Origin: an uncultured Haloferula sp.
GTDB taxonomy: Bacteria > Verrucomicrobiota > Verrucomicrobiia > Verrucomicrobiales > Akkermansiaceae
Reading direction: 5' to 3'
NCBI GenBank assembly: GCA_965652295.1
Contig: CBFGTS010000003.1
Span: 32,001-96,000 of the forward strand
DNA length: 64,000 nucleotides
Positions within the stretch are counted from its first letter, which is position 1, and the number at the start of each line of letters is the position of its first letter. This document shows, one piece after another, positions 26,587-28,606 of the stretch. The position numbers and the translations under genes were made by a program. A model generated the notes under the pieces. That model did not search any database. It was not told the origin of the DNA and saw nothing but the letters and a program-made list of their open reading frames with translations.

Positions 26587-26655
26587 TTCCGGGGGCGAAA
26601 AACGGATGCATCACAATTCTTGCGACTCCGTTTCAGAAGAAGCAGCATCCGCTTC

Positions 26656-26889
26656 ATGGAAACCTTCGAGAAGGCCTTCATCGAGCAGCATGCCGCCCTG
26701 GACCAGGTCATCGAGAAGGGGCTCGCCCTTCAGCAGTTCCGGTCGCGCCACGCCGAGGACGAATGGTCGCCCGAGATCGGGACCGAGCTCCAGCAGCTTC
26801 TTGAAGGAGTCACCGCCGCCGCGGAAACACTCAGCGTCCGGACCCGGCGGGTTTCCTCGATGCACCGCGAAAAACTCAGCGGGTGCTGA
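26656..26889 (+). CDS. Small hypothetical helical protein (77 aa)
   Basis: Host-like codon usage, ATG start, followed by a hairpin with T tract. Confidence 0.55.
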   Translation: METFEKAFIEQHAALDQVIEKGLALQQFRSRHAEDEWSPEIGTELQQLLEGVTAAAETLSVRTRRVSSMHREKLSGC

Positions 26890-26904
26890 CCCTCCTTCCC
26901 CGCA

Positions 26905-27005
26905 ACAGAAAGCCCCGGTCTCTGGGGGGAGGAAGACCGGGGCCTTTTCGGGGGGGGGTAAGACAGCGTGGGGGACGCTTGCGGGGGGATGGTGCGCTCG
27001 CTTGA
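26905..27005 (-). ncRNA. Putative C-loop small RNA, copy A
   Basis: Minus-strand hairpins with CCCCC(A) loops; ACGCTGTCTT..CCCCCGAA core and upstream GGATCTACGCAG box shared with copy B; boundaries and strand inferred. Confidence 0.4.
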
Positions 27006-27119
27006 CGCGCCGGTAGATTCCCATGATTCCAGCGATTCGCAATCCCCCCAATTGGAGGCTGCGTAGATCCCCGCGGAGGAAAATTGACAACGCGGCCCGA
27101 TGTTCCCGATTCCTAAGAT

Positions 27120-27288
27120 ATCGAGGTGGTCGCAGAGCTTCTGCACCGCCTTGGATCGTGGATCGTAGGAACTTGTTGTCTGGGTCAGCCTGGGGGGCTG
27201 GCTCCCAACTTCAGAGCCCCTCGCGGGCTCGTTTCAGCGATCCGCGTGGGTGCCTGGCTTCTGGGGGGAAGCCGGGCACCCTTCTTTT
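27120..27288 (+). ncRNA. Putative G-loop small RNA ending in an intrinsic terminator
   Basis: TTGACA at 27084; hairpin GTCAGCC-TGGGG-GGCTGGC; terminator GGGTGCCTGGCTTC-TGGGGG-GAAGCCGGGCACCC-TTCTTTT (27248-27288); 5' end inferred. Confidence 0.4.
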
Positions 27289-27504
27289 CGACAAACGGAA
27301 TCTCCCAACCCCCGGCCACCACTGAGGTGATGGCTCCGGGGGCTGGGATCCGGCCCTAGAAGCCGGGTCACCCACACAGTGACGAGACCAAGTCTCCACC
27401 ATTCCCCCGTTCTAACAATCACGTCATGGAGGATACGTCTTCACGCGGGCGAACGGCCTCGGGCTGGAGGTCCTCTTGGCCAACTTGGCGATCCTGAGGC
27501 CGTT

Positions 27505-27610
27505 GAAAGAAAAAGGGAACGGCCCCACCCTCAGGGGAGAGGTGCGGAGCCGTTCGGGGGAAGACAGCGTTGAGTTCTGGGGGAACTGAGCCAAGCGATG
27601 CCCGCTCGCA
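27505..27610 (-). ncRNA. Putative C-loop small RNA, copy B
   Basis: Paralogous to copy A; minus-strand AGTTC-CCCCA-GAACT hairpin, ACGCTGTCTTCCCCCGAA core, terminal hairpin plus CCCTTTTTCTTTC. Confidence 0.45.
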
Positions 27611-27956
27611 AAATTGCAGGAATTCACCTCCCGGCAATCTCCTTCGAAGGAAATCTGCGTAGATCCCGCTGCCCGGATCGGAAACCACCCTCAGAAGATT
27701 CGGTTTCTGAGGTAGCGCTGGATTCTGGGACTTCGGTCCCTCCAATGATCGCGAATCATTGGGATCGGGCACTCCTTCTTTCAGAGCGAAGGGGGATGAT
27801 GGGCTAAAACCGAGATCCTCCCGCGAGGAACCGGGTCACTGACACTCCACAGTGTTTACGGCCGAATTTCCAGCCGAGAGACGCGAGACCGTCGGCCAAT
27901 TTCGGGTGAGGTATTTCCTTGAAATCGGACATCCGTCCGCCACATTGCCAAATATC

Positions 27957-28531: not shown

Positions 28532-28606
28532 TGGTGCGCGGTGCAGGGTTCGAACCTGCGACCCCATCGGTGTGAACGATGTGCTCTACCACTGAGCTAA
28601 CCGCGC
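28532..28606 (-). tRNA. tRNA-Val(CAC)
   Basis: GCGCGGTTAGCTCAGTGGTAGAGCACATCG-TTCACAC-CGATGGGGTCGCAGGTTCGAACCCTGCACCGCGCACCA; 75 nt, encoded CCA. Confidence 0.97.

Follow-up and report, generated by a model that had tools for sequence, protein, structure and literature searches.

The interval between positions 26890 and 27850 of the window (the whole stretch of 64,000 nucleotides of Haloferula DNA analysed here) holds no credible gene; a RibD_C gene and a gene for a 77-aa protein lie on one flank, an unannotated ORF and a tRNA-Val gene on the other. It contains two similar C-rich units, raising the question of what these units are and what they might act on. The initial annotation had described them as paralogous structured RNAs on the minus strand that share an upstream operator box, and all the motifs that it listed for the two units, here called A and B, were found where it had placed them: the 12-mer box, then 16 nt (A) or 17 nt (B) further on a TTGC, followed in order by GCGAGCG, a hairpin with a C loop, ACGCTGTCTT(A)CCCCC..GAA and, at the end, another C-loop hairpin whose T tract is weak in A and clear in B. 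Because the 4.37-Mb genome contains the exact box at just two places, both in this region, and because folding compared with shuffled sequences gave z of −3.35 for A and −3.01 for B, the resemblance is not due to chance. The equivalence of GCGAGCG and ACGCTG between the units did not hold at the structural level, as ACGC forms the 3' arm of the C-loop hairpin in A but lies outside that hairpin in B. The features of the region as we read them, including a plus-strand unit (M) between A and B that had been missed, are as follows.

26656 to 26889, plus strand: gene for a lineage-specific 77-aa helical-hairpin protein, predicted leaderless (TTGCGA at 26620, CAGCAT at 26643)
26905 to 27008, minus strand: predicted RNA A of the C-loop family, its start placed from the position of the −10 element
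27015 to 27042, minus strand: predicted sigma70-type promoter of A (TTGCGA 27042-27037, 16 nt, GAATCT 27020-27015)
27044 to 27058, no strand: imperfect palindrome, consensus CCCYCMA-W-TTGMGGG, directly before the −35 of A, candidate regulator site
27059 to 27070 and 27655 to 27666, plus-strand coordinates: the 12-mer box GGATCTACGCAG
27084 to 27112, plus strand: predicted promoter of M (TTGACA, 17 nt, CGATTC)
27119 to 27290, plus strand: predicted RNA M of the G-loop family, with a presumed start
27297 to 27437, minus strand: third structured unit N, with a GUGUG-loop hairpin and a long terminal hairpin, convergent on M
27506 to 27603, minus strand: predicted RNA B of the C-loop family, with a presumed start
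27610 to 27666, minus strand: promoter region of B (box 27666-27655, palindrome 27653-27638, TTGCCG 27637-27632, AATTTT 27615-27610)
27680 to 27854, no strand: degenerate relics resembling N and M (weak N profile match at 27792-27847, E 0.17)

Units A and B look like copies of an undescribed family of small RNAs with C-rich loops. RNA A would consist of a leader hairpin, a single-stranded C6, a hairpin with a C5 loop (26974-26970), a C9 linker (26958-26950) and a terminal hairpin with a C6 loop and a short U tract, and RNA B of a C5-loop hairpin, a C5 linker and a terminal hairpin with a C loop and a U tract. BLAST and nhmmer detected three copies beyond A and B in the same genome (G000) and covariance models a sixth, so that the two units are paralogues as had been said, but only two of six. 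Each of the two nearest relatives carries six to seven copies, two further ones in G021 having been found with model R3. The plan of these A-type units is a palindrome, a TTG −35, 16-17 nt, an nAnnnT −10 and a purine 7 nt later, followed by a predicted RNA of about 100 nt (on the minus strand for A and B). This RNA would open with a small leader hairpin and a C/A-rich linker; next comes a hairpin whose loop is CCCCC(A/G), joined by a YTTCCCCC linker to the terminal hairpin, which has a C loop and a U tract. The C runs, three to four exposed ones per RNA, are predicted to be unpaired, most of them at p>0.9. In the stems 20 of 25 pairs vary on both sides and 91.8% of the cells are paired, a result reached by 0 of 500 shuffles; the 19 model-aligned hits counted include the five training copies and three weak ones, and their alignment leans to the model. 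The count agrees with the earlier statement that the C-loops are kept while the stems vary. G-U cells outnumber A-C cells by 21 to 12 in the helices, weakly supporting the strand. We found no downstream gene common to the copies, as expected of trans-acting RNAs, and most copies have no M neighbour. That the units are functional small RNAs seems to us highly probable.

With RNA starts predicted near 27008 and 27603, the box, the palindrome and the TTGC would be promoter DNA. A TTG stands at the −35 of 13 of the 16 A-type units and an nAnnnT at 16-17 nt in 15 of 16, both judged by eye. The units had been thought to depend on an activator. At −12, T is not favoured in the promoters of this genome (C 50, T 35, G 34, A 14), so a −10 without it is ordinary and activator dependence does not follow; we rejected that argument. 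What hints at a regulator of the A-type promoters is solely the palindrome adjoining the −35, which is also the best-conserved upstream element; the four best matches of its weight matrix in the genome are family members, themselves in the training set. The box does stand before both A and B, but it appears to be misread as their shared operator. It lies 13 nt before the −35 of M in the window and in the copies of two relatives (L073, L080), whereas its distance to the −35 of A-type units ranges from 16 to about 29 nt, and it precedes only 4 of 16 such units, those backed by M or an M relic (by eye). Because the box is fixed to the −35 of M and not to that of A, it is most likely part of the M promoter.

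Separately, the palindrome TACGC-N4-GCGTA, of which the box holds one half, is over-represented between genes, with 16 intergenic hits at a gap of 4 and 2-8 at other gaps. It precedes several C-rich or G-loop RNA-like units (sites include G000 C7:64052, C26:16482, C2:13068, C12:43987 and C21:24495, and L165, L171 and L298) and is a candidate operator of some regulator.

Unit M and its relatives look like a second undescribed multicopy family, back to back with the A-type family. RNA M is predicted to form a 5' hairpin, a three-way junction with a G6 hairpin (27192-27197) and a terminator hairpin (27248-27281) with a G6 loop (27263-27268) and then a U tract. Four copies fold alike despite their different sequences, with 91.8% of cells paired; 9 of 37 pairs vary on both sides, a value matched by 9 of 500 shuffles on that measure with these four sequences. 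Since G-U cells far exceed A-C cells (24 versus 1) and a U tract follows the last hairpin, we placed M on the G strand. All full copies have two runs of G5-G8, each in a hairpin. The promoter motif TG(A/G)A(A/G)-N16/17-CGAT(A/T) was present in 9 of the 9 full-length copies first examined, from which it was also derived, compared with 0.5% of random intergenic windows; six hits that were partial or weak lacked it. Among four further full-length copies detected afterwards, L188 and L297 carry it and L187 and L296 do not. The motif resembles the recognition sequence of sigma28. Of 24 sigma loci 11 were inspected, none of which looked like FliA, and sigma28 was rejected as the factor for M; a second RpoD-like sigma factor (285 aa) is encoded at G000 C22:40006-40863. 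In one sequencing run that we guess to be of RNA, a 153-nt contig spans 27225-27360, and otherwise only a piece of tRNA was covered; we gave this run no weight. A second G-loop subtype (L087, L089, L295 and L298 in G021; L291 in G008) has an A/C-rich linker before its G-loop terminator and lacks the M promoter motif.

A-type and M units are divergently arranged in the window and at L037 and L046, and an A-like unit and M are convergent at L188. Unit N carries an upstream motif CGTR-N10-CGTR at 27412-27437 and has paralogues on contig C21 of the same genome and at L002, L037 and L046; the cassette including N recurs in loci of two relatives. This part of the window can be read, weakly, as a tandem duplication of an N/M/box/A cassette of which the second N and M have decayed, the likeness to M within 27680-27854 being judged by eye only.

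How widely are these families spread? Covariance model R1, built from five copies of the own genome, gave matches in 7 of 35 genus genomes at E<=0.05, strong ones only in G000 (5), G021 (5) and G041 (6), and model R2 of the M family likewise matched 7 of 35, strongly in the same three. The two fellow carriers are the nearest kin of G000 by IDH identity (89% and 86%), so that the co-occurrence is not independent and shared presence counts as one event; the repeated linkage of A and M is the better argument. In G008, the relative that follows these, there is an M-like unit (E 0.0013) and no A match. BLAST of the whole region found matches in only 2 of 41 genomes. Among family genomes R1 matched 7 of 151 at E<=0.01, strongly only in G000 and G021, and R2 5 of 151; R3 matched 4 of 151 order genomes, strongly only in G000. 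These wider searches do not establish absence, because in each genome just 19-29 candidates are scored, and two M copies that linkage later brought to light had escaped them. A promoter pattern run over 185,579 genomes hit 39 loci, five of them with the RNA, these five all in Haloferula, H. luteola and H. sargassicola being the named carriers; in metagenomes and viruses it hit 49 loci, none better than E 0.016. Two other patterns were discarded: a linker pattern with two mismatches allowed, whose matches across the genus were mostly chance, and a G-hexaloop pattern, which matched 27 times in 16 of 35 genomes against 1 in the control, most of these matches not being M-like on inspection and hence no sign of a wide spread. 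We found no paper on such RNAs in this group, although the motifs might be contained in the supplements to large surveys of RNA motifs.

The translation starts of the host bear on what such RNAs could do. According to extracts from two reports (PMC10798248, PMC10783764), Verrucomicrobiales lack Shine-Dalgarno (SD) sequences. Before 1786 ATG starts, predicted by gene calls made in this analysis, CCACC (116 versus 47) and AACCC (95 versus 50) are enriched and GGAGG is not (38 versus 48); AGGAG is mildly enriched (30 versus 13), so that SD use is not nil. Runs of C5 occur at 1.56 per kb in leaders compared with 0.65 in coding sequence, and runs of G5 at 0.85 per kb in leaders. With leaders that are C/A-rich and not enriched in GGAGG, the C loops are unlikely to be anti-SD elements as in cuckoo RNAs. 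The 3' end of 16S rRNA was not found in the assembly, and in this genome (98% complete) we detected neither a CsrA (PF02599) nor an Hfq match. Many genes here appear to be leaderless or short-leadered behind TTG-16/17-nAnnnT promoters, with a peak 6-7 nt before the start.

We propose, with about as much confidence as doubt, that A and M form an sRNA-sponge pair in which C-loops and G-loops base-pair with each other, with a logic like that of RoxS/RosA. The A-type units would be sigma70-transcribed small RNAs holding several unpaired CCCCC(A/G) runs. M would be a small RNA under separate control that bears two (U/C)GGGGG hairpins, and the families would act on each other without Hfq, as regulator and sponge. 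Opening of the closing G-U pairs would turn the G runs of M into (U/C)GGGGG loops that complement the CCCCC(A/G) loops; in the minimum-energy fold these runs lie half within stems, and they are predicted to be only partly unpaired. Since the start regions are C/A-rich without SD enrichment, the likelier direction would be that M pairs with C-rich mRNA leaders and that the multivalent A-type RNAs, resembling such leaders, titrate it. Together these features suggest a possible regulator-and-decoy RNA pair in a few related Verrucomicrobia without normal ribosome-binding sites.

Predicted pairing, with opening costs included, is in line with this proposal. Unit A pairs with M at −9.2 to −12.2 kcal/mol, which 6-13 of 400 randomly chosen mRNA start regions equal, and unit B more weakly at −5.6 to −8.9, matched by 7-51 of 400. 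The median pairing with start regions is −5.6 and −6.7 for M compared with −2.1 to −2.7 for A-type RNAs, though G-rich RNAs pair more freely through G-U. That M ranks among the best partners of A is suggestive only, as any C run pairs with any G run, making the test partly circular, and the ranking is relative to random start regions and not to shuffled RNAs. No compensatory change between A and M loops was seen across genomes.

The 77-aa gene, convergent on A, is possibly a member of the A/M system. It has eight copies, in the same 3 of 35 genomes as the A-type and M families, with an M-like match at five of the eight loci and an A match at two. Its product has no relatives in Pfam, PDB, Atlas or viral searches and five library matches, one of which, a 1747-aa repeat protein, was judged an artefact. 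It is modelled as a two-helix hairpin (helices 4-32 and 39-74, pLDDT 95.5). In a fold search a lengthened Rop variant ranked 9 (Z 9.6, rmsd 2.2, 74 aligned), a generic match tied among 117 chains at Z>=8, and neither Pfam nor PDB sequences gave a match to Rop. A bolder version of the sponge-pair proposal, which we regard as unlikely, would make of these parts a mirror-image RNA code in an SD-less lineage: the G-loop RNA M, under a non-housekeeping promoter, would act on the C-rich translation starts of many mRNAs, multicopy C-loop RNAs would mimic leaders and neutralise M by hexaloop kissing, and the co-located two-helix protein would be a chromosomal Rop-like adaptor stabilising the kissing complex.

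The main rival, possible though we doubt it, is that the A-type RNAs titrate a protein that binds C-rich RNA, with the logic of CsrB and another motif, and that M is unrelated or a bystander. The exposed C runs, kept in loops while stems vary, are what such a decoy would offer, and the CACAC/ACACC linkers of the A-type RNAs resemble 5-mers of the leaders, so that the RNAs might mimic C/A-rich leaders. Putative binders are RRM proteins, S1 or a Rho paralogue: the genome has four RRM genes and two Rho-domain genes (G000 C11:128642, C10:120495), one RRM gene (G000 C6:125373-126011) being divergent from an M copy, and RNA-like units with many AUCCCCCC repeats exist in G002 (L159). But CsrA has no match in the genome, an M neighbour was seen at just 1 of 13 scanned RRM loci (absent at the other 12), RRM genes also occur in three genomes without strong A matches, and titration leaves the mirrored G-loop family next door unexplained. 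That complementary family would be a more direct partner than a CsrB-like protein target. The L159 unit itself (minus strand, about 1400-1580) places some eight repeats of the AUCCCCCC type ahead of a terminator with a C loop, a very CsrB-like layout; a shorter unit on the minus strand at C12:43900 of the own genome has a similar terminal hairpin, and L040 and L052 hold similar C-run units.

Antisense action of the 6C type on G-rich mRNA sites, with M as an independent regulator and no A-M interaction, seems quite unlikely. The best Rfam match of A is indeed 6C, 6C RNAs act through C-rich loops without chaperones according to extracts from PMC6486639, and for some start regions the predicted pairing with A is strong (minimum −13.8), but G runs are scarcer than C runs in the leaders, the median pairing of A with start regions is low as given above, and A and M are repeatedly linked.

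Still less do we favour duplicated terminators, REP/MITE-like repeats or decaying island cargo in place of functional RNAs. The narrow range, the relic copies in the window and at L192, the C-loop terminators that also end ordinary mRNAs (L038, L054) and the frequency of nearby tRNA genes (10 of 34 loci, compared with 5-7% of intergenic regions) would fit such an origin. The box moreover holds GTAG, the tag of one REP class, which in extracts from PMC3733652 is defined by GTAG followed by a stem of 5-13 bp; a 5-bp stem follows the box only at B (by eye). Yet 0 of 958 14-mers of the region have at least five copies where true repeats reach 25, in agreement with the RNA reading of the initial annotation and against a MITE or REP, while the promoter geometry is conserved, the stems covary, and A-type copies in G000 and G021 occupy orthologous sites next to SLOG, HAD and 77-aa genes. 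In the window the tRNA gene lies at 28535-28606, and the tRNA genes of the 10 loci, orthologous pairs included, lie within about 1.6 kb. That A is an antitoxin-like antisense partner of the convergent 77-aa gene, as in type I toxin-antitoxin pairs, is far-fetched: its terminator abuts the stop of that gene in the window and at L190 and L192 (a relic) and the gene is confined to the same three genomes, but just two of its eight loci have an A match, most A copies lack the gene, and the protein models as a soluble-looking hairpin.

Two complementary, structurally conserved multicopy families with predicted promoters, present in records of cultured Haloferula type strains, make it directly testable how small RNAs control translation in bacteria that use neither SD sequences nor Hfq or CsrA. 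Such work could also reveal whether translation initiation here uses a C-rich signal. General importance is limited by the narrow range unless the diverged analogues (L159, L040, L052, L291) prove to be the same system.

Among known systems, the kissing loops of ColE1 RNA I and RNA II are complementary hairpin loops of about 6 nt, served by the small two-helix protein Rop; A and M resemble them in their complementary loops of about 6 nt and the gene for a small two-helix protein nearby, whereas they are chromosomal and trans-encoded with unlike stems, and the 77-aa protein has no sequence match to Rop. CsrB and RsmZ carry many GGA motifs in loops, with several paralogues and a palindrome before the promoter. 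The A-type RNAs share the repeated single-stranded motif, the paralogues and the palindrome, but their motif is a C run in a genome without a CsrA match; GGA is in no loop of A or B and at most once in those of some paralogues, several of which bear a single AGGAA or GAGAA loop on the leader hairpin. Rfam placed no known family other than tRNA over threshold in this region of the window or the 14 related loci, in support of the initial annotation. For 6C RNA (RF01066), A reached 32.1 bits (gathering threshold 47, E 0.13), and the 14 loci gave no match. The likeness, weak and over the last 60 nt of A, consists of hairpins with C5-C6 loops, the stem-loops with runs of about six C that mark 6C being present in A and B. 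6C belongs to another phylum, and its C loops repress mRNAs with G-rich 5' UTRs (extracts from PMC6486639), while the A-type family is multicopy in Haloferula and adds a leader hairpin, a single-stranded C linker and a G-loop partner family. Cuckoo RNAs of alphaproteobacteria, which according to extracts from PMC4615179 present CCUCCUCCC in each of two to four hairpin loops, are likewise multicopy with variable stems and a constant C-rich loop motif, but the A-type loop is CCCCC(A/G) and not CCUCCUCCC, has no Rfam match and is unlikely to be anti-SD. Closest in logic are RosA with RoxS and FsrA in Bacillus subtilis, where G-rich RosA binds C-rich RoxS, and RsaI with RsaG and RsaE in Staphylococcus aureus; in extracts from PMC8216469, a G-rich RNA and C-rich sRNAs use short G/C tracts to pair in an organism that does not depend on Hfq, as proposed for A and M. 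The same tract complementarity is predicted here, but with the G runs of M partly paired, and none of these RNAs has a sequence or Rfam match in the A/M units or the 14 related loci. Both sides are multicopy here, present hexaloops on hairpins and sometimes share one divergent cassette, and as the host shows no SD enrichment, the C-rich RNA would not be simply anti-SD and the roles may be reversed. The A/M system thus has a logic like that of RosA/RoxS or RsaI and a shape like that of 6C and cuckoo RNAs, stands outside each family tested, and is not a REP.
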